Shown: positions 4,407-12,818, counted from the stretch's first letter. The stretch: 42,358 nt of DNA from Chloroflexia bacterium (GCA_036389075.1 DASVQO010000045.1:1-42358), one strand, 5' to 3'. Notes: generated by a model not told the origin, from the sequence alone. A program made the numbers and translations.

Positions 4407-4465
4407 GGCCTATGCAAGAAAAATCCCGCGGAAATATCTTAAGCGGGATTTTTCTTGCATAGGCC
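4407..4465. repeat. Perfect 23-bp inverted repeat with a 13-nt loop, lying between the large-subunit stop and the amidase start
   Basis: 4407-4429 (ggcctatgcaagaaaaatcccgc) is the exact reverse complement of 4443-4465 (gcgggatttttcttgcataggcc). GC clamps flank an A/T-run core. No U-tract follows on either strand. Confidence 0.9.
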
Positions 4466-4468
4466 TTC

Positions 4469-6802
4469 CTACCGTCTTTTGCGCGCGCCCTCCACCAGCT
4501 CCCACAATTTACTAGGGCTGAGGGGTATCTCCCGTATCTCCAGCCCGATGTCCTCAAAGGCGTTGTCGAGCGCCTGGGCGTACAGCGGACCGACAGGGAT
4601 AGCCCCCGCTTCGCCCGCGCCCTTGACGCCCATCGGGTTGAGGGGCGAAGGGGTTTCCTCGTGGCCTACCTCGATACGGGGCACGTCGGTGGAGGTAGGG
4701 AGCAGGTAGTCCATGAAGGAGGCATTGAGCAGTTGACCGCTTTCGTCGTACGCCAGTTGCTCGAAAAAGGCGTTGCCAATGCCCTGCGCCACCCCGCCGT
4801 GCACCTGCCCCTCAAGGATGAGCGGGTTGAGCACCGTGCCGCAGTCGTGCACTACCACGTAGCGTTGCACCTTCACGTCGAACGTCTCATCGTCCACCTC
4901 AAGGATGATGGCATGCGCGCCACACGCAGTAGCCTGCATGGGCGGGCCGAAATAGGCCGTGGCTTCCAGGCCCGGCTCGGTCCCGGGCTTGACAGCGCCG
5001 CGCAACGGGTTGGCCCTGGCCGCCAGTTCCGATAGGCTCACCCTCGCGCCGGGCATGCCCTTTACCTGCGCGTAGCCCCCCTGCAACTCTATATCCTCGT
5101 CCGCGGCCTCCATCATCTCAGCCGCCAGGCGTTTGGCCTTCTCTGCAACCATACCGGCGGCGGCGTGCACGGCGGACCCGGCCACCGTGGCCCCCCGGCT
5201 GGCGAACGTGCCCGTGCCCCAGTTGAACTGCCCCGTATCCCCCGTCGAAACCAGCACGTCCTCTAGCGGCACCCCCAGCATGTGCGCGGCTATCTGGGCG
5301 AACACGGTGTAGTGCCCCTGCCCCTGCGTGCCCACCCCCGTGACCACCGTCACCTTGCCCGTAGGCTCCACCTGTATGCGCGCCCCCTCGTACGGCCCGA
5401 TGCCCGTGCCCTCGACGTACATCACCAGCCCGATGCCAATCCGCTTGCCCTCGGCGCGCAGTCGCGGCCCCTCCACCGCGCGAAACTCGTCCCAGCCTAT
5501 CATGGCTTTGGCCCTGTCCAGCACCGGCTCGTAGTTGCCGCTGTCATAGGTCAGGCTGGTGAAGTCCTGGGCGATAATCACGTTGTTGTAGGGGAACTGG
5601 TCCGGGTGGATGAAGTTGCGGCGGCGCAGTTCCAGGGGGTCGATGCCAAGCTCTTTTGCCGCCGCGTCCAGCAGCCGCTCGATCACGAACACCCCGTGCT
5701 GTCGGCCCGCGCCTCGGTAGGGCGTAACGATGATCTTGTTGGTGAACACCGCCTTGAACTCGGTGTAGTAGTGGGGCACGATATAGGGGCCGAGCAGGTG
5801 GGTCTGAGTGTTGAGGGGCACCGTGAGGCCGTAAGGGTCGTACGCGCCGTTGTCGTGGAGGAAAACGTCTTTTATGCCCAGTATCTTGCCATCCTTGGTG
5901 ATAGCAAGCTCGGCCTCGTGCACCTGCCCCCGCTCGTGCGTCATGGCGACGAAGTTCTCCAGCCGGTCCTCGATCCACTTGAGGGGCCGGTTCAGCTTAA
6001 TCGCCGCCCACGGCACCAGCGTCTCCTCGGGGTAGAACATCATGATCTTGGGCCCGAACCCGCCGCCCACAAAGGGCGCGACCACGCGCACCTGCCGCTC
6101 CGAGAGGCCGAGCATCCCCGCCAGTCCGTTGCGTATCGGTATGGGGGCCTGGGTCGAGTCCCACACGGTGAGGTGGCGGGCAAGCTGGTCCCACTGCGCC
6201 ACCACGCCCCGCGTCTCGATAGGTGCCGCCGTGCCCCGGTCGTACTCGAAATGCCGCGACACCACGAGGTCGGCGTTAGCGCGGGCCGATGCGTAGTCCC
6301 CCTTGGTCTGTATCACGTGCGCCGCCAGGTTGGAGCCAACGTCCTCATGCACCAGCGGCGCGTCCTCATCCAACCCGACTTCAACACGCACCACCGCGTC
6401 CAGCGGCTCGTACTCCACAACTACCGCATCCGCTGCGTCTTCCGCGAGGTACCGGCTCTCGGCCACAATCATGACCACAGGCTCGCCCACGTAGCGCACC
6501 TTGTCGCGCGCCAACTGCCCCGCCGTCCGCTGGTTGAAGACCACGTACTGCGCCGGAGGCGGAGGCACCAGCAGCGGCGAAGGCTGCCAATAATCCCCCA
6601 AATCCTCCGCCGTATAGACCGCCACCACCCCCGGCATCTCCCGCGCCCCCGCCACGTCCACGCTCAACAGCCGCGCGTGCGCGTAATCGCTCCTCTTAAA
6701 CGCCACGTGCAACATCCCCGGAATATGCACGTCGTCCACAAACAACGCCTGCCCCGTCAGCAGCCGAGGGTCCTCATTCCGCTTAACCCGAGCACCAATC
6801 AC
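4469..6802 (-). CDS. Molybdopterin-dependent oxidoreductase large subunit (xanthine dehydrogenase / CoxL-like, form-II-type motif)
   Basis: 777 aa. The N-terminus is KRNEDPRLLTGQALFVDD. The active-site loop reads TPYRGAGRQ (AYRGAGR type) rather than the AYxCSFR of form-I CODH. It starts with GTG, preceded by GGGGGGAG. Confidence 0.9.
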   Translation of the reverse strand: MIGARVKRNEDPRLLTGQALFVDDVHIPGMLHVAFKRSDYAHARLLSVDVAGAREMPGVVAVYTAEDLGDYWQPSPLLVPPPPAQYVVFNQRTAGQLARDKVRYVGEPVVMIVAESRYLAEDAADAVVVEYEPLDAVVRVEVGLDEDAPLVHEDVGSNLAAHVIQTKGDYASARANADLVVSRHFEYDRGTAAPIETRGVVAQWDQLARHLTVWDSTQAPIPIRNGLAGMLGLSERQVRVVAPFVGGGFGPKIMMFYPEETLVPWAAIKLNRPLKWIEDRLENFVAMTHERGQVHEAELAITKDGKILGIKDVFLHDNGAYDPYGLTVPLNTQTHLLGPYIVPHYYTEFKAVFTNKIIVTPYRGAGRQHGVFVIERLLDAAAKELGIDPLELRRRNFIHPDQFPYNNVIIAQDFTSLTYDSGNYEPVLDRAKAMIGWDEFRAVEGPRLRAEGKRIGIGLVMYVEGTGIGPYEGARIQVEPTGKVTVVTGVGTQGQGHYTVFAQIAAHMLGVPLEDVLVSTGDTGQFNWGTGTFASRGATVAGSAVHAAAGMVAEKAKRLAAEMMEAADEDIELQGGYAQVKGMPGARVSLSELAARANPLRGAVKPGTEPGLEATAYFGPPMQATACGAHAIILEVDDETFDVKVQRYVVVHDCGTVLNPLILEGQVHGGVAQGIGNAFFEQLAYDESGQLLNASFMDYLLPTSTDVPRIEVGHEETPSPLNPMGVKGAGEAGAIPVGPLYAQALDNAFEDIGLEIREIPLSPSKLWELVEGARKRR

Positions 6803-6817
6803 TTTGCTCCCCCCTTC

Positions 6818-6940
6818 GGGGGAATTCTTAATTCTTAATTTTTAATTCTTAATTGAGTCTCTCGTCACCAACGTCGCAAAAAATACACATAGTCACCAAA
6901 CCCAATTAAGAATTAAAAATTAAGAATTAACAATTCCCCC
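6818..6940. repeat. 38-bp inverted repeat (1 mismatch) built from tandem AATTCTT-type heptamers, with a 47-nt loop; intercistronic
   Basis: Left arm 6818-6855 is GGGGG(AATTCTT)(AATTCTT)(AATTTTT)(AATTCTT)AATTG. Right arm 6903-6940 is its reverse complement except 6827/6931. It is extremely AT-rich within a GC-rich operon. The last stem base is the first base of the small-subunit stop codon. Confidence 0.95.
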
Positions 6941-7467
6941 TACAGCATTCCTGCTTCTCCCGCCACGTCCTCTTCCTGGGCGGGGGTGGTTAGGCCGGCG
7001 CGGCGTTTGGCGGCGGCCAGCTTGACGGCATCTACTATGTGCTGGTAGCCGGTGCAGCGGCAGATGTTGCCGGAGAGAGCCAGGCGTATCTCTTGTTCGG
7101 TGGGGTCGTCGTTTTCTTCGAGGAAGGGCAGCAACGTCATCAGGAAGCCGGGTGTGCAGAAGCCGCATTGCAGGCCGTGGGCTTCGTGGAAGGCAGACTG
7201 TAACGGGTGCAGATCGTCGGGGTCGCCGGAGAGGCCCTCCACCGTCATTATGCTGCGGCCGGCCGCCTGCACCGCGAACGTCAGGCAGGAGCGCACCGGC
7301 ACGCCATCGAGCAGCACCGTGCAGGCCCCGCACACCCCGTGCTCGCAGCCCACGTGGGTGCCTGTCAGCCCAAGCTCGTGCCGCAGGAAATCGCTGAGCA
7401 GCAGCCGCGCCTCGACGTCCCGGGTATAGCCCCGGCCGTTTACTTCTACGTCAACAACATGGTCCAT
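6940..7467 (-). CDS. (2Fe-2S)-binding small subunit of Mo-hydroxylase (CoxS-like)
   Basis: 175 aa. It has GCEHGVCGACTV and CGFCTPG..NICRCTGY, the two canonical [2Fe-2S] cysteine clusters. Confidence 0.92.
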   Translation of the reverse strand: MDHVVDVEVNGRGYTRDVEARLLLSDFLRHELGLTGTHVGCEHGVCGACTVLLDGVPVRSCLTFAVQAAGRSIMTVEGLSGDPDDLHPLQSAFHEAHGLQCGFCTPGFLMTLLPFLEENDDPTEQEIRLALSGNICRCTGYQHIVDAVKLAAAKRRAGLTTPAQEEDVAGEAGML

Positions 7468-7476
7468 TTAGCTTCC

Positions 7477-8352
7477 TCAAGCCCCACTCGCCCGCTGTGC
7501 CGCCCGCGTGAGGGTGCGTCGCGCCAGCACCTTCGCCAGGTGCCGCCGGTACTCGGCAGTGGCATGGATGTCCGCCTGCGGGTCGATGTCGGCCTCTATG
7601 GCTTCCGCCGCCGCCCGAATTGCCTCCTCCGTGGGGCGCTGTCCGAGCAAAGCAGAGGAGGCCGCTGCTGACACGACGGGCATATCGCCTACCGACAGGA
7701 ACACCAGCCTGCTCTCGGCCACCGTGCCATCCTCGCCCAGCGTCACCACGGCGGCGGCACCCACAAGGGCATAGTCGCCGTGCCTGCGCGCGAACTCCTC
7801 GAAGGCGGTACCGGTCCTGGCGGGCAGCGGCGGCACCGACACCTCCACCAGCATCTCATCTTCGTCAAGAGCTGTGGTGAACAGACCCAGGAAGAAGTCT
7901 GGCGCGCCTATCCAGCGGTCGCCGCTCGCGTTCTGCACCCTCATCTGGGCGTCGAGCGCCACAGCCAGGGCGGGCAATTCAGCGGCAGGGTCGGCGTGGG
8001 CCAACGACCCCCCGAACGTGCCCCGGTTGCGGATCTGCGGGTGCGCGATGAAGGGCATCGCCTCGGCAATCAGAGGTGAGCGTTCGGCCACGATAGGGCT
8101 ACGCTCCATGCTGCGGTGCCGGGTCATAGCTCCCACCAGCAGGCCGCCGTCCTCGCCAGGGTGGATACCAAACAGGTCGTCCACCCCGTTCAGGTCCACC
8201 AGGATAGAGGGCTGGGCCAGGCGGAAGTTCATGCTGGGCACGAGGCTCTGCCCGCCCGCCAGCACCTTGGCCTCCCCCGCGTGCTCGGCCAGCAGGTCCA
8301 ACGCCTCTTGCCGCGTGCGCGGCGCGTAATACTCGAATGGAGGTGGCTTCAT
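7477..8352 (-). CDS. FAD-binding medium subunit of Mo-hydroxylase (CoxM-like)
   Basis: 291 aa. MKPPPFEYYAPRTRQEALDLL...AGGQSL...RNRGTFGGSLAHADPAAELPA is the typical FAD_binding_5/CO_deh_flav_C pattern. Gene order is M-S-L. Confidence 0.9.
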   Translation of the reverse strand: MKPPPFEYYAPRTRQEALDLLAEHAGEAKVLAGGQSLVPSMNFRLAQPSILVDLNGVDDLFGIHPGEDGGLLVGAMTRHRSMERSPIVAERSPLIAEAMPFIAHPQIRNRGTFGGSLAHADPAAELPALAVALDAQMRVQNASGDRWIGAPDFFLGLFTTALDEDEMLVEVSVPPLPARTGTAFEEFARRHGDYALVGAAAVVTLGEDGTVAESRLVFLSVGDMPVVSAAASSALLGQRPTEEAIRAAAEAIEADIDPQADIHATAEYRRHLAKVLARRTLTRAAQRASGA

Positions 8353-8354
8353 AG

Positions 8355-8427
8355 AATTACGAATTACGAATTACGAATTACGAGTTAGGGAGGAGCCCCC
8401 GTAATTCGTAATTCGTAATTCGTAATT
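8355..8427. repeat. Perfect 28-bp inverted repeat made of four tandem AATTACG heptamers, with a 17-nt loop; intercistronic
   Basis: 8355-8382 is (AATTACG)x4 and 8400-8427 is (CGTAATT)x4, the exact reverse complement. The loop is agttagggaggagcccc. The stem ends 2 nt from the medium-subunit ATG (8352) and 3 nt from the cyclase stop (8431). Confidence 0.95.
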
Positions 8428-8430
8428 ACC

Positions 8431-9255
8431 TTAGCTTTCCTGCACGAAGGCTACGATGCGGGCGAAGGCCGCTTCGCCGCCTTTGAAGCGGAAGGGGAAG
8501 CAACCCAGCCACACACGCTGGTCGAGCACCTCGTCCACCTGGCCGCCCACGTTCTCGGCGTGGAAGACGCCCCTCGGGAAGAGCAGCGTGTGGGTGCACT
8601 GGTAGTCTTCCATCCAGGGGAACGCCTCGTCCATGCTCATGCCTATCTTGGCTTCCACTTCGGGTACGAGGTCGGGACGGGCCACGCGCACCTTGGTGTT
8701 GAAGGGGTGGTCGGTGGAGATAGCGTCAATCGCCATCCAGCGGATGCCCCTGTCGAGCACCCAGTCGCAGAACTCGCGGCGGGGGCCGGGGTGGCGCAGG
8801 AAGGAGCGGGGCAGGTCGGGCGGCTCCTGGTTGTGGACCTTGTACCAGTCCTCGTTGTAGTAGTGGTGGTAGCCGGTATGGATCACCAGGATGTCGCCGC
8901 GCTCTATCGTGATGCCGGTGTCGCGCTCCCACTGCTCGAAGTGTTGCGAGCCGTAGATGTCGTAGTCGCCGATGCCGTACTTTGAGAGGTCCACCACGCA
9001 GGCGGGGCCGAAGAGGGTGTCGATGGGGATGCCCGCGATGTCGGGCCCGGGGTCGAAGAAGTGGTAAGGCGAGTCGAGGTGAGTGGCGATGTGGTTGGTG
9101 CTCGAAATGTGTTGCGCGTTCACACCCTCGAAGGCGATCTTCTTGACCCACTTGATGGTCGGACCCTCGTAGAAGGCGAACGGGGGCGAGTCCATGCTGA
9201 AGTTCTGCGACAGGTCCAGCACTTTGACCTTACTGAGATCATAAGGCACGTACAT
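8431..9255 (-). CDS. Cyclase-family protein (kynurenine-formamidase-like metal hydrolase)
   Basis: The tracked ORF 8431-9732 is trimmed to the internal ATG at 9255 (MYVPYDLSKVKVLDLS...). The 159 codons upstream are Cys/Pro/Arg-rich low-complexity sequence that overlaps the def start region. The HxxTHxDxPxH motif is present (NHIATHLDSPYHF). Confidence 0.8.
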   Translation of the reverse strand: MYVPYDLSKVKVLDLSQNFSMDSPPFAFYEGPTIKWVKKIAFEGVNAQHISSTNHIATHLDSPYHFFDPGPDIAGIPIDTLFGPACVVDLSKYGIGDYDIYGSQHFEQWERDTGITIERGDILVIHTGYHHYYNEDWYKVHNQEPPDLPRSFLRHPGPRREFCDWVLDRGIRWMAIDAISTDHPFNTKVRVARPDLVPEVEAKIGMSMDEAFPWMEDYQCTHTLLFPRGVFHAENVGGQVDEVLDQRVWLGCFPFRFKGGEAAFARIVAFVQES

Positions 9256-9508
9256 TAGGCACACTCCCTTGTGTAGTGATATTAAACGGGCAGGCAACCC
9301 GCACGTAACCGGGGGCGGGCAGCAGAATGGGCCTATTATACTACAAGAATCGCCTCCCATGAAACATAATGTCGCCCGTTTACGACTTTGCCCCGGCCAA
9401 ACGGCCAGACACCGGCCCCTGAGCAATATCGTGGCCTTACCCACTCTGCCTTCCAATCCGGTAGAATAGTACGTATCACGACCGATATGAAGGGGAGACA
9501 CAAGGCCC

Positions 9509-10132
9509 ATGAATAGCTTACAGCAGGACGGTACGGCGAGAAGGCCCACACCTATAACCCAGTTTGGCGACCCGGTGCTACGCTTGCAGGCGCAGGAGGT
9601 AGCCCCGGACGAAATCGCCACGCCCGAGATCCAGGACATCATCGAGGATATGGTAGTGTCCCTGGCCGCAGCAGGGGGCGCGGGCCTTGCCGCCCCACAA
9701 ATCAGCATTTCGAAGCGCATCATAATCCTCAAGTTCCCGGCTATGAACCGCGTCGGCTACGGAGACATCGAGGAAACGCCCTTGCTGGTGATGATCAACC
9801 CGGAGGTCGTTTTCGCCTCGGAGGAAACCAGGCGCGCGCCGGAGGCCTGCCTGTCGATAAATACCCCCGATGGAGGCAGGTACGAAGGGGTGGTCGAACG
9901 CCCTGAGCGGGTCCGCGTGAGAGGCTACGACCGCACGGGCAAGGAAATCACCGTGGAGGCGGACAAGTTCCTGTCGAGGGCGCTCCAGCACGAGGTCGAC
10001 CACCTCAACGGCATCCTCTTCACCGACCACATACGCAACCTCAAAGACCTCCGCATCTACCGCCCCGTAGAGGCTACAGACCCTGTGCTTGGGGCTAACG
10101 TGCATCTCTCGCCGCAACCTCTAACGTTGTGA
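9509..10132 (+). CDS. def: Peptide deformylase
   Basis: All three PDF motifs are present: GAGLAAPQI (motif 1), EACLSI (motif 2, Cys ligand) and QHEVDHLNG (HExxH, motif 3). Confidence 0.9.
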   Translation: MNSLQQDGTARRPTPITQFGDPVLRLQAQEVAPDEIATPEIQDIIEDMVVSLAAAGGAGLAAPQISISKRIIILKFPAMNRVGYGDIEETPLLVMINPEVVFASEETRRAPEACLSINTPDGGRYEGVVERPERVRVRGYDRTGKEITVEADKFLSRALQHEVDHLNGILFTDHIRNLKDLRIYRPVEATDPVLGANVHLSPQPLTL

Positions 10133-10237
10133 AAGGTTCCAGTCGGTTGCCCTGGCCCTGTGGCTTCAGCCGAGGCAAAGTCCCCTACGGTGACTAACTA
10201 GAAGTCGTCTCGATAACAACATCGCCAAACATGAGCG

Positions 10238-10401
10238 CCCAGGCCCCACCCCCTGTCATTTCGAGCGTAGCGAGAAACCTCGCCCTTCAGCACCCAAAGC
10301 TTCACCTTTCTTACGCTACAGCCTCCCCTGAGAAAAGAGCCACATCCCGGTGAGGGACGAGATTTCTCACTACGTTCGAAATGACAAAGGCGGGGCTTGG
10401 G
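10238..10401. repeat. 164-bp palindromic intergenic element, same family as 2754-2922 (imperfect arms of about 45 bp, 75-bp spacer)
   Basis: The left arm contains ccctgtcatttcgagcgtagcgagaaacctcg. The right arm contains cgagatttctcactacgttcgaaatgacaaagg. The core is shared with the 2754-2922 element, and the spacer length is similar. Confidence 0.8.
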
Positions 10402-10490
10402 TGCCGGTTCTCCACAGTTGGTTCTTGAGCGAGCTTCTAACATGAGGCCAGTCTCCTTCGGAGACTTCGCTACTTCTCAGCCCGTGGCTT

Positions 10491-10660
10491 ATGAAGATTG
10501 ACAACTTAACAAAGTAATAGGCTGTAGGGGCAGGCCCCCGTGCCTGCCCTCATGCTGGCGTACCATGTGCAAATCTCCAATAAGGGCAGGCACGGGGGCC
10601 TGCCCCTACGTAACCCTCTCTCACCCCTGGTGATTACCTCATTAACCAGTCAATCTTCAT
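10491..10660. repeat. 170-bp nested palindromic element (12-bp outer inverted repeat plus a perfect 27-bp GC-rich inner inverted repeat)
   Basis: Outer repeat: atgaagattgac (10491-10502) against gtcaatcttcat (10649-10660). Inner repeat: gtaggggcaggcccccgtgcctgccct (10524-10550) against its exact reverse complement (10583-10609). Each inner arm is itself self-complementary (gggcaggc/gcctgccc). Confidence 0.9.
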
Positions 10661-10781
10661 TAGCCACAGGGCGTCCCCACAAGGCTATCGCAGGGCATCA
10701 CAACCCCAGCTAAAATGAGCACACCCCGGGGAACAAGAAACATGCTTGACGGCGCTCAGGCGCTGTGCTACCCTGCTCTGC

Positions 10782-12818
10782 ATGAAGGCTACCCCGGCCT
10801 CGCCAACGGAAGCAAGCACGGCTGCGGTCCATGAGCGCGGGTCAACGCAATCTCAAGCAGCAGGCCCCACGCAAGTCCCTCAGAGGCCGGGCTTCCGAAG
10901 CGCATATTGGTTAGCTCTGCCGCTACTCGCTATCGGTGCATACATCACGGTCTTGCGAGTCGGCTTCCTGGCCGATGATTTAGTATTGCTGGACGCCGCC
11001 CGCACGGATGTCATCGGTGTCAGGTCCCTGCTTCCGCTGCAAGGCGAGACGTTCTACCGGCCCGTAGGTCTGATGTTGACCTGGAAATTGGGCTGGCAGT
11101 TATGGGGCTTCAATCCGCTCCCCCTCCATCTGCAAGGGCTGCTGATACACGCCGCTGTTTCCCTGGTACTCGGCTTGTGGCTGGCGGAAGCTACCTCACG
11201 CCGTGTGCTGGGTTGGCTGGCCGGGGCCATCTTTGCGGTGCTGCCCATACACACGGAGGCCGTAGGCTGGCTCGCCGCTCAGTGGGACCTGTGGGCTACC
11301 CTGTTCGCGCTACTCAGTCTCTTATTGTTTACACGCTGGTGGAAGGCTAGGCGGCCATCCTGGTACCTCTATGCCGGCTCGGTGCTTTGCTTCGCGCTCG
11401 GGCTGTTTGCCAAAGAGAGCCTCATAACCTTTATTCCACTAATCCTCTTATCTGCCTGGATTACCGAGCGCCCCACCACCGGACAGAGCCGTCGCCGCCT
11501 CGCTTATGCCATGCTGCCGTTCTGCCTGGTGCTGGCGGCCAACGTGGGTATTCGCCTCGTGACCTGGGGCAGCATCGGCGGGTATAAGGGCCTGGAGTCG
11601 AGTTACTTAGACTTCTTTTGGGACGGTTACACTCACCAGCTACGCGGTCTGTTATCTCCCGTGAACCCTGCGGTGTTCGGGGATTCGACGGTCCAGGTTG
11701 TTGGGGCATGTACTTCCCTGCTAATACTGGCGGGTGTGCTGATGTACGGGCGGACCGAGAAGGTCCCGCTCGGATTGGCTGCCGCCTGGCTTGCAGTGAC
11801 GTTGTTCCCCGTGCTGAACTTGCCCGTCAGACCCGACGACCTGCAACAGAACCGTTTCCTCTACTTACCGGCTGTGGGCTACTCTGCGGGTATTGCGGCA
11901 ATAGTCTGTGCCGCTATCAGCGGCATGGGGAGGCAGAGACGCTTAGCTCTAGTAGGCGTTTGTGGCCTCCTGGCGTTGAGCGGGGCCGCATGCTGGGTGC
12001 AGTTGCGCCCCTGGCACACCACTACCGTGCAAGCTGAAGAAATCGACCGCCAGTTGCAAGCCCTGGTGCCGCCACAGCCCAACAGGCCCCAGGGCATGAC
12101 ATGGTATGTCGAAAACGTGCCGGACAACTACAAGGGCGCGTACCTCTTTCGCATCGGCCTTGGGAACATGCGCGGTCTAGCAACAGGTGATGGAACATGG
12201 ATCGAGAACACCGAAAGCGCGGTCGGGGCACCGCTCTGGGACGCAAGCAGCAAACAAGATGTATTTGCTATGAGGTTCTCCTTCGACCGGGCGCTTACCC
12301 GCTTCCGTGTAGCTCACATTGCGGGCATTACGATGGGTAGCGCGAAGCCGGAGGAGCCCGCGACGGGTAACGACCTGAAGGTGGCCGATTTCACCAACTG
12401 CGCGAGCGATGTGCTGGACCAATGGCACCCCGAGCAAGCAACTTACCACTGCGTTCCGGGCGAGGGCCTGGTGTTCAAGCCGGGCAACGAAGATTCGCGC
12501 CTGGTCAATGCGGGTGCGAACGCTGACGCCCCTCGGTCCAGGGGAGGGTTCACCAGGGTGCGCGTGGCCGTTAGCTACCCGGCGAAGGACAACGCTCAGG
12601 GCCTTGTCAACCAGTGGTACTGGTCGGGGCAGGGTGAGGGCTTCAGCGAAGAGCGCCTGAGTAGCCTACCCATAGTGCAAGATGGAAAGGACCACACTTA
12701 CTGGGCGTTCGTGCGCGCAGACCAGTCGGAAGGAGGTATCTCCATGCTGAGGTTCGACCCGGTCAACGCTAAGATGCCGGTTACGATAAGGTGGCTAGCC
12801 ATCGATACGGTACCATGA
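10782..12818 (+). CDS. Polytopic membrane protein, GT-C-fold / TMTC-PMT-like glycosyltransferase candidate, with a C-terminal extracytoplasmic domain of about 250 aa
   Basis: About 11 hydrophobic segments. An early loop motif (GFLADDLVLLD ... FYRPVGLM) is typical of ArnT/PMT/DUF1736-type GT-C enzymes. I prefer the ATG at 10782 over the tracked TTG at 10746, because 10746-10751 (TTGACG) followed by a 17-nt spacer and then TACCCT looks like a promoter. The start remains uncertain. Confidence 0.6.
   Translation: MKATPASPTEASTAAVHERGSTQSQAAGPTQVPQRPGFRSAYWLALPLLAIGAYITVLRVGFLADDLVLLDAARTDVIGVRSLLPLQGETFYRPVGLMLTWKLGWQLWGFNPLPLHLQGLLIHAAVSLVLGLWLAEATSRRVLGWLAGAIFAVLPIHTEAVGWLAAQWDLWATLFALLSLLLFTRWWKARRPSWYLYAGSVLCFALGLFAKESLITFIPLILLSAWITERPTTGQSRRRLAYAMLPFCLVLAANVGIRLVTWGSIGGYKGLESSYLDFFWDGYTHQLRGLLSPVNPAVFGDSTVQVVGACTSLLILAGVLMYGRTEKVPLGLAAAWLAVTLFPVLNLPVRPDDLQQNRFLYLPAVGYSAGIAAIVCAAISGMGRQRRLALVGVCGLLALSGAACWVQLRPWHTTTVQAEEIDRQLQALVPPQPNRPQGMTWYVENVPDNYKGAYLFRIGLGNMRGLATGDGTWIENTESAVGAPLWDASSKQDVFAMRFSFDRALTRFRVAHIAGITMGSAKPEEPATGNDLKVADFTNCASDVLDQWHPEQATYHCVPGEGLVFKPGNEDSRLVNAGANADAPRSRGGFTRVRVAVSYPAKDNAQGLVNQWYWSGQGEGFSEERLSSLPIVQDGKDHTYWAFVRADQSEGGISMLRFDPVNAKMPVTIRWLAIDTVP

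Follow-up and report, generated by a model that had tools for sequence, protein, structure and literature searches.

Bacteria have been known since about 1990 to carry tandem heptamer repeats, which are over-represented in several phyla. Stem-loops between cistrons that govern the stability of mRNA segments or control initiation downstream include the malE-malF REP, the hairpins of the puf operon and the structure in atpHA. In other operons, it is well established that translation can be coupled through the unmasking of a structured initiation region.

Heterocystous cyanobacteria carry heptanucleotide STRR sequences, and the hairpins between hupS and hupL are as a rule composed of 7-bp repeats; proposals for their role name the stability of the transcript and translational coupling (PMC2670836). 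In Xanthomonas, GGGAATC heptamers form 70 to 75 convergent inverted pairs per genome, and the type of repeat (single or inverted pair) is kept between species while its length varies (PMC4692102). The largest class of TAACTGA repeats in Beggiatoaceae ends 1 nt before a start codon; where sets overlap the upstream ORF, a recognisable Shine-Dalgarno sequence (SD) was found in only two cases, and a role in translation has been proposed (PMC4679880). Chloroflexus aurantiacus harbors heptamer-derived satellites, (GATAGRA)n (PMC6749651).

Here we analyze a heptamer-repeat hairpin, HP1, on a 42,358-nucleotide contig (the window) of an uncultured Chloroflexia bacterium, where it separates a cyclase-family gene from a coxM-like gene. 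Judged by its sequence, HP1 is an STRR-type palindrome from a host lineage new to this class, not a new kind of element. What appears to be new is a second heptamer hairpin, HP2, in the same operon, the retention of a hairpin at one gap while its sequence is rewritten, and the joint change of its arms.

Results

HP1 is a tandem-heptamer hairpin between a cyclase gene and coxM

HP1 lies on the minus strand in a gap of 78 nt (8353-8430) between the TAA of the cyclase gene (8431-8433) and the ATG of the coxM-like gene (8350-8352), and it is wholly non-coding, being placed between two ORFs supported by Pfam matches (Table 1). Direct reading, repeat searches and folding all recovered the perfect 28-bp stem and 17-nt loop reported by a first-pass annotation of this DNA. 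By inverted-repeat search, the arms measure 28 nt, are 100% complementary, lie 17 nt apart and are also found in registers shifted by 7 and 14 nt, while TRF returned arrays of period 7 with 4.9 and 4.0 copies and 96 to 100% match. The spaced pattern AATTNNNAATTNNNAATT matched 11 times in the window versus none in 100 shuffles. The gap has a GC content of 38% versus 64% for the operon, which bears out the description of an AT-rich element in GC-rich surroundings. The same annotation had the stem filling the entire space from stop to start; it does occupy the 78-nt gap and its 3' arm does end 2 nt before the coxM AUG, but 3 nt (GGU) stand between the cyclase stop and the 28-bp stem. Two extra pairs (G-C and G-U) can bring the base of the helix flush with the stop and start codons.

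Table 1. Positions of HP1, HP2 and the genes of the operon in the window
Feature	Position	Strand	Basis
Cyclase-family gene, upstream cistron	8431-9255	minus	PF04199 (E = 7.8e-33); public gene call, 274 aa
HP1 5' arm on the mRNA, (AAUUACG)x4; (CGTAATT)x4 on the plus strand	8400-8427	minus	sequence reading, TRF, inverted-repeat search
HP1 loop, 17 nt, mRNA sense GGGGCUCCUCCCUAACU	8383-8399	minus	sequence reading, fold
HP1 3' arm on the mRNA, (CGUAAUU)x4; (AATTACG)x4 on the plus strand	8355-8382	minus	sequence, TRF, fold
coxM-like FAD-binding medium subunit, xanthine-dehydrogenase family, no SD	7477-8352	minus	PF00941, PF03450
coxS-like 2Fe-2S small subunit, SD GAGGAAG within the end of coxM	6940-7467	minus	PF01799, PF00111
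HP2, second heptamer hairpin, coxS-coxL gap	6818-6940	minus	TRF, inverted-repeat search, fold
Small hairpin CCCCC-GAA-GGGGG(AG), just after HP2	6806-6822	minus	sequence, site scan
coxL-like molybdopterin large subunit, GTG at 6802, SD GGGGGAG	4469-6802	minus	PF02738, PF20256, PF01315

The window is a JGI metagenome contig, and contigs of five further samples or assemblies also encode its CoxM protein. HP1 is identical, letter for letter, in five independent assemblies from different samples, and a sixth contig breaks inside the array. HP1 is thus a real element, and the possibility of an assembly artefact named in the first pass can be set aside.

The operon contains a second heptamer hairpin

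The gene following coxL encodes an amidase, and the order cyclase-coxM-coxS-coxL is also seen in relatives. All related coxM sequences open with MKP(P/T/A)PFEYY at the same codon, indicating that the coxM start is correctly called. About 1.4 kb from HP1, HP2 fills the coxS-coxL gap. Its arms are built of about five units, AAUUCUU versus AAUUAAG, over 41 nt that are 95% complementary and enclose a 41-nt loop, and its predicted RNA fold reaches -75.2 kcal/mol (z = -10.6). Six related sequences retain the unit AATTCTT, and variant units in them always occupy mirrored positions in the two arms. In the alignment, 98.2% of the cells are paired and four pairs show compensatory changes, values that none of 500 shuffles reached. 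By this comparison, HP2 appears to evolve more conservatively than HP1. An inversion of the HP2 loop by recombination between the arms was considered for the window versus L126 and L121 (loci of relatives are designated by L numbers) and rejected, the alignment scores falling within the range of shuffles in both orientations.

Several other structures occupy the gaps of this operon. The small hairpin at 6806-6822 pairs the coxL SD with an anti-SD-like run, and equivalents made of other letters occur in L287, L126, L121, L292 and L293; since the arrangement recurs with different letters, the stem that masks the SD appears to be maintained through covariation. The coxL-amidase gap holds a perfect 23-bp hairpin with a 13-nt loop and no heptamers (4407-4465), the amidase ATG being without SD, and the corresponding regions of L126 and L121 showed no hairpin of at least 16 nt. 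At the position of HP2, the contig of P0024 (JGI 3300056388) carries a Y1 transposase gene (PF01797, 150 aa) between coxS and coxL, which may mark the insertion of an IS200/IS605-type element in or next to the hairpin.

Two more families of palindromes were noted. A 30-bp, GTAG-tagged, REP-like palindrome runs from GTAGGGGCAGG to CCTGCCCCTAC at 10524-10609 of the window, and a related element lies in the coxM-coxS gap of L293 (2425-2520). A MITE-like inverted-repeat family of 150 to 175 bp with the shared core CTGTCATTCTGAGCGTAGCGAAGAATC is present at 2751-2925 and 10245-10395 of the window, at 12331-12476 of L126, at 10515-10681 and 12684-12813 of L121, and at about 940-1110 of L292, with one copy in the coxM-coxS gap of L292.

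The coxM start codon lacks a Shine-Dalgarno sequence

The 30 nt preceding the coxM ATG contain no GGAG, GAGG or AGGA, so that the missing SD of the first-pass annotation holds. SDs are present before the cyclase gene, coxS and coxL in the window. Within the window's clade, none of the eight hairpin-bearing sequences, the window counted, shows an SD-like motif before coxM. More broadly, such a motif precedes one of eight coxM homologues with an upstream heptamer array versus 101 of 150 without an array, a contrast that effectively amounts to a single evolutionary event since the SD-less relatives form one clade. In the one array-bearing homologue that has the motif, 46 nt separate the hairpin from the ATG. 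Moreover, the SD-less start of coxM is not exceptional here, since about half of the long ORFs in the window, with starts mechanically assigned, also have no SD-like motif.

Two further signals had been read into the loop, namely, an anti-SD-like CCUCC on the mRNA and a strong SD-like site, GGGAGGAG, on the plus strand. Neither reading survived the comparison with relatives: CCUCC is particular to the window, the related loops being unrelated in sequence and without the motif, and GGGAGGAG has no ATG, GTG or TTG downstream and is absent from all related sequences.

Relatives keep the hairpin and rewrite its sequence

Relatives were collected by a genome scan and by a protein search with contig look-ups, giving nine distinct sequences with a readable cyclase-coxM gap and 74 to 93% CoxM identity. 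L288 and L289 are one sequence on two contigs, and L291 is cut at a contig end so that only its 3' arm is visible. A search of metagenomes for closer relatives yielded no locus above 64% identity. A tandem-heptamer hairpin occupies the gap in all nine. From CGAATTA in the window (CoxM, 100%), the unit changes to CGAATTT, somewhat degenerate, in L287 and L288/L289 (93%), CGGATTT, with AAATCCG in the other arm, in L290 (91%), CGTGAAA in L126 and L291 (89%), CGTAACN in L121 (86%), CGTAAAA in L293 (84%), GAAGTTA/GAAATTA in L294 (78%) and GAGAAAT in L122 (74%). From one member of this series to the next, one to three bases of the heptamer are substituted. The gaps recovered in full fold with -27 to -58 kcal/mol, and the distance from stem to AUG ranges from 0 to about 19 nt. 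Orthologous operons had been suggested as a check for an insertion, but none with an empty gap was found: every related sequence examined has the hairpin, indicating that HP1 is old and inherited and not a recent insertion.

Both arms shift jointly, as in the step from CGAATTT/AAATTCG (L287 to L289) to CGGATTT/AAATCCG (L290), and they stay almost perfectly complementary across the related sequences. At conserved residues of coxM, identity of third positions to the window ranges from 82% down to 47%, so that synonymous divergence across the series appears to approach saturation. Unconstrained arms would, at third-position identities as low as these, long since have become non-complementary. Taken together, these comparisons point to one old, vertically inherited palindrome per gap, the arms of which evolve in concert.

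In L122, the first unit, GAGAAAT, equals the last two codons of the cyclase gene plus the first base of its stop codon, indicating that this array grew from local sequence. The same locus has an AATTACG/CGTAATT hairpin upstream of the cyclase gene (5031-5090), followed by a normal SD (GGGGAGGG) and ATG; a relative with 74% identity thus employs the unit of the window at another gap of this operon. Intercistronic heptamer arrays and hairpins, for example AATGCGG/CCGCATT, also occur in distant coxM operons from Gemmatimonadota, Acidobacteriota and Anaerolineae, either after coxM (L147, L222, L229 and L230) or before it (L134, L209, L127, L139 and L149).

The series bears on the idea that HP1 acts at the level of DNA, either as the site of a protein that reads the heptamer or as a phase-variable tract that switches expression by copy number. 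Heptamer direct repeats do bind proteins elsewhere, for example SARP regulators (PMC5930380), and for Nostoc a partner that binds the heptamers has been proposed (bioRxiv 10.1101/2022.06.06.494920). However, the heptamer differs among the related sequences, which disfavors a sequence-specific reader, and the five assemblies of the same population show no difference in copy number of HP1. We consider an action of this sort very unlikely.

HP1 belongs with the STRR-type repeats

In a pattern search of genomes, exact (AATTACG)x3 was found in at least 120 species genomes of several phyla; those among the matches listed include Nostoc, Anabaena, Calothrix, Chitinophaga, Saprospiraceae, Ignavibacteria, Acidobacteria, Planctomycetota and Chloroflexia. 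In the loci of the matches listed, 257 arrays have period 7 and at most 12 have any other period from 4 to 12. The matches listed contain 140 distinct heptamer units, including the classical cyanobacterial CCCCAGT and GGGGATT, and 35 pairs of arrays arranged as hairpins. Many of these pairs have AATTACG arms around unrelated loops, examples among the matches listed coming from Chitinophaga, Acidobacteria, Chloroflexia, Odoribacteraceae, Thermoflexus and Nostoc. The window holds four arrays in its 42 kb (two hairpins with two units), and L122 holds eight in 12.9 kb.

HP1 consists of a 7-nt unit repeated head-to-tail in at least three copies at an intergenic site, as STRR-type repeats do, and HP1 and HP2 share with the hupS-hupL type the arrangement of inverted complementary heptamer arrays between co-directional genes that encode subunits or accessory proteins of one enzyme. 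The original STRR hosts are filamentous or heterocystous cyanobacteria; the closest relatives of the present sequence are Chloroflexia/Chloroflexota MAGs. Other classes were rejected on their hallmarks. HP1 has tandem-repeat arms that bear neither a GTAG nor a CGTC tag, which speaks against REP/BIME; there is no target-site duplication and no core common to the copies, whose loops are unrelated, which speaks against a MITE; and the CRISPR reading was rejected on anatomy. An intrinsic terminator is not apparent, the stem being AT-rich and followed by CUAUGAAGCC with no U-run, and the site scan reported neither a promoter-like nor a terminator-like site in the cyclase-coxM gap. Rfam searches over 6000-11000 in E-value mode returned only sub-threshold miRNA-precursor models (35 bits versus a threshold of 90), which are generic models of long hairpins. 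With MITE, REP and terminator hallmarks absent and no Rfam match above threshold, HP1 is best filed with the STRR kind. The statement of the first-pass annotation that no described repeat family fits must be withdrawn, since HP1 matches a catalogued family: it fits the STRR type, the hupS-hupL hairpins and the heptamers of Xanthomonas, Beggiatoaceae and Chloroflexus.

These observations also bear on whether HP1 could be a mobile, MITE- or REP-like miniature inverted-repeat element inserted into the gap. Three observations would fit such an element: the arms are terminal and inverted, their sequence recurs at further loci and in further genomes, and a Y1 transposase gene stands at the position of HP2 in one distant relative. 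Nevertheless, besides the missing target-site duplication and tags, copies with the same arms have unrelated loops, and the graded series of heptamers at one site among the relatives argues for descent in place. A mobile origin is therefore hardly credible.

About 80% of the heptamer arrays are single and not paired. Arrays and hairpins lie in co-directional (19), convergent (10) and divergent (5) gaps, usually 0 to 15 nt from ORF ends, although these orientations come from rough ORF calls that are unreliable in GC-rich loci. Sense and antisense folding energies of the 19 co-directional hairpins gave a ratio of 12:7, which is not significant. Seeding of palindromes by units that contain a 4-nt palindrome (AATT or ACGT) found no statistical support, the hairpin form accounting for 13 of 52 versus 24 of 154 arrays (p = 0.14). 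In HP1 and its related copies, G-U pairs number 16 of 313 in the sense and 25 of 322 in the antisense orientation, with no enrichment on the mRNA strand; HP2 has four U-G versus two C-A pairs. The pairing thus does not in itself demonstrate selection at the RNA level, since there is no sense-strand excess of G-U and DNA-level homogenisation predicts the same picture.

This brings us to the possibility that HP1 is a self-renewing palindrome without function. Lineage-specific 7-nt slippage in non-coding gaps would generate the arrays, fold-back template switching would keep correcting the arms, the operon would merely tolerate the palindromes, and coxM would use an SD-independent route of translation common in the organism. 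The indifference of arrays and hairpins to gap orientation, the predominance of single arrays, the lack of a sense-strand bias in G-U pairs or in stability, and the frequency of SD-less ORFs in the window all fit this account, as do the seeding of the L122 array from local coding sequence and the presence of other palindromic families in gaps of the same operon in relatives. It sits less well with the persistence of the hairpin at one gap, in every related sequence examined, despite near-saturated synonymous sites. Direct repeats should readily allow the element to be lost by deletion between them, but loss was never seen among the relatives examined, and the SD is consistently absent exactly at the hairpin. 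On balance, we regard an element without function as rather unlikely, though a serious contender.

HP1 is predicted to fold stably and to slip between registers

As RNA, the HP1 gap is predicted to fold with -49.5 kcal/mol (z = -8.3), and as DNA with -30.1 kcal/mol (z = -10.6). We compared RNA folds of the shifted helix with in-register helices truncated to the same extent and obtained -25.5 versus -25.8 kcal/mol for a shift of one unit, and -14.0 versus -14.6 kcal/mol for the further shift. In these models, register slippage of HP1 costs almost nothing in energy, in agreement with the several 7-nt-shifted registers expected in the first pass. Because the arms are tandem repeats, the helix is predicted to re-pair in 7-nt steps at little energy cost.

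The coxM codons for Tyr-Tyr-Ala contain, at 8325-8331, the plus-strand sequence CGTAATA, a 6/7 copy of the HP1 arm unit, which is predicted to pair with the last unit of the 3' arm once a ribosome covers the first unit of the 5' arm. In a simple and crude model of a ribosome at the cyclase stop, the freed nucleotides near the AUG were accordingly predicted to pair with coxM codons and not to stay open. The model was dropped as an account of AUG exposure since it does not clearly expose the AUG, the freed nucleotides pairing with this copy inside coxM.

A helix of this length might also serve as an RNase III module. RNase III needs roughly two helical turns of duplex, and the perfect, continuous 28 bp of HP1 exceed this length, which provides the structural prerequisite alone. 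A cut would separate the cyclase mRNA from a coxMSL mRNA with a new 5' end 10 to 16 nt before the AUG; the short, SD-less leader would be read as near-leaderless, and stem remnants would set the stabilities of the segments. The absence of an SD would suit such a leader, and the small hairpin after HP2, before coxL, could protect a processed 5' end. In Haemophilus, RNase III is reported to act on a 5'-UTR element beside a heptanucleotide repeat tract (PMC12721329). Against this, the related stems vary in length and imperfection, and hairpins between convergent or divergent genes would be left unexplained. Processing of this kind, though compatible with all that was seen at the locus, seems improbable to us as the main role of HP1.

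Discussion

We tentatively favor, at somewhat less than even chances, the view that HP1 is a vertically inherited palindrome, renewed by slippage and arm copying, that gates coxM at the mRNA level and contributes to processing or stability. Whole units would be gained or lost by slippage within an arm, and intrastrand template switching, selection for pairing or both would copy one arm to the other. The 7-nt period would then be the trace of this renewal and not a sequence signal that is read. HP1 would be transcribed within the operon mRNA and, if it folds in vivo, form a 28- to 30-bp helix, the base of which would hold the cyclase stop beside the coxM AUG. A free 30S subunit would presumably be unable to load on an SD-less AUG 0 to 3 nt from such a helix; hence translation of coxM would most likely depend on ribosomes that come directly from termination at the cyclase stop. 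These ribosomes would melt the helix base, amounting to a structure-gated translational coupling. For the upstream segment, the helix could in addition block 3' exonucleases or provide a site for RNase III. An influence of HP1 on the expression of the downstream cistron is our best functional guess. Coupling cannot, however, explain all heptamer hairpins, since some adjoin convergent or divergent genes. The lack of a sense-strand excess of G-U pairs, the pairing predicted by the ribosome model, the varying distance from stem to AUG, the single clade behind the SD contrast and the many SD-less starts of the window also count against this view.

A bolder proposal, which we hold to be quite improbable, is that heptamer-repeat palindromes are self-renewing structured spacers across phyla with a real job, including a handover of the AUG that replaces the SD. 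Re-pairing in 7-nt steps at almost no energy cost could keep the AUG at the helix base while a ribosome enters the 5' arm, and handing the start codon to the terminating ribosome would replace the SD. In a stronger version still, a dedicated activity working in 7-nt steps could make and mirror such arrays in Cyanobacteria, Chloroflexota, Bacteroidota, Acidobacteriota and others.

Whichever reading holds, the locus provides a clean natural series: one gap in ten distinct versions (the window and nine related sequences with 74 to 93% CoxM identity), across which the hairpin is always present, its sequence always different, its arms co-changing and the coxM start always without SD. This series makes the old question of the role of heptamer hairpins directly testable, and it is a data set with which selection for RNA pairing can be separated from DNA-level correction of palindromes. 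For annotation, such elements in GC-rich Chloroflexota belong with STRR-like repeats and not with unknown RNAs, terminators or MITEs.

Among the known systems, the intercistronic hairpins of malE-malF, puf and atpHA resemble HP1 in being stable and in lying between cistrons of one transcript, which is presumed here. They are short and without tandem repeats, and their function has been demonstrated, whereas that of HP1 is deduced. The satellites of Chloroflexus aurantiacus come from the same phylum, and tandem heptamers are the most abundant class of short repeats there as described for this species, but they are direct arrays for which no hairpin arrangement or operon context is reported (PMC6749651). 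Like HP1, the TAACTGA arrays of marine Beggiatoaceae stand directly upstream of start codons and are patchy across phyla; in contrast to HP1, they are nearly all direct (1 inverted among 170), with a single heptamer genome-wide (PMC4679880). Xanthomonas shares intergenic inverted heptamer pairs able to form stem-loops, but its unit is G-rich, quadruplex-forming and dominates the genome, whereas the units described here are AT-rich and differ from site to site.

A close parallel is with the hupS-hupL hairpins of Nostocales. In both cases, a 7-nt tandem unit forms inverted arrays between the subunit genes of one enzyme operon, and the structure is kept while the sequence varies among close relatives; among the matches listed, classical STRR units and AATTACG arrays are found together in the same genomes. 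Unlike the STRR of cyanobacteria, the present elements reside in a Chloroflexia host of about 60% GC, use the units AATTACG and AATTCTT, and are seen within 42 kb only.
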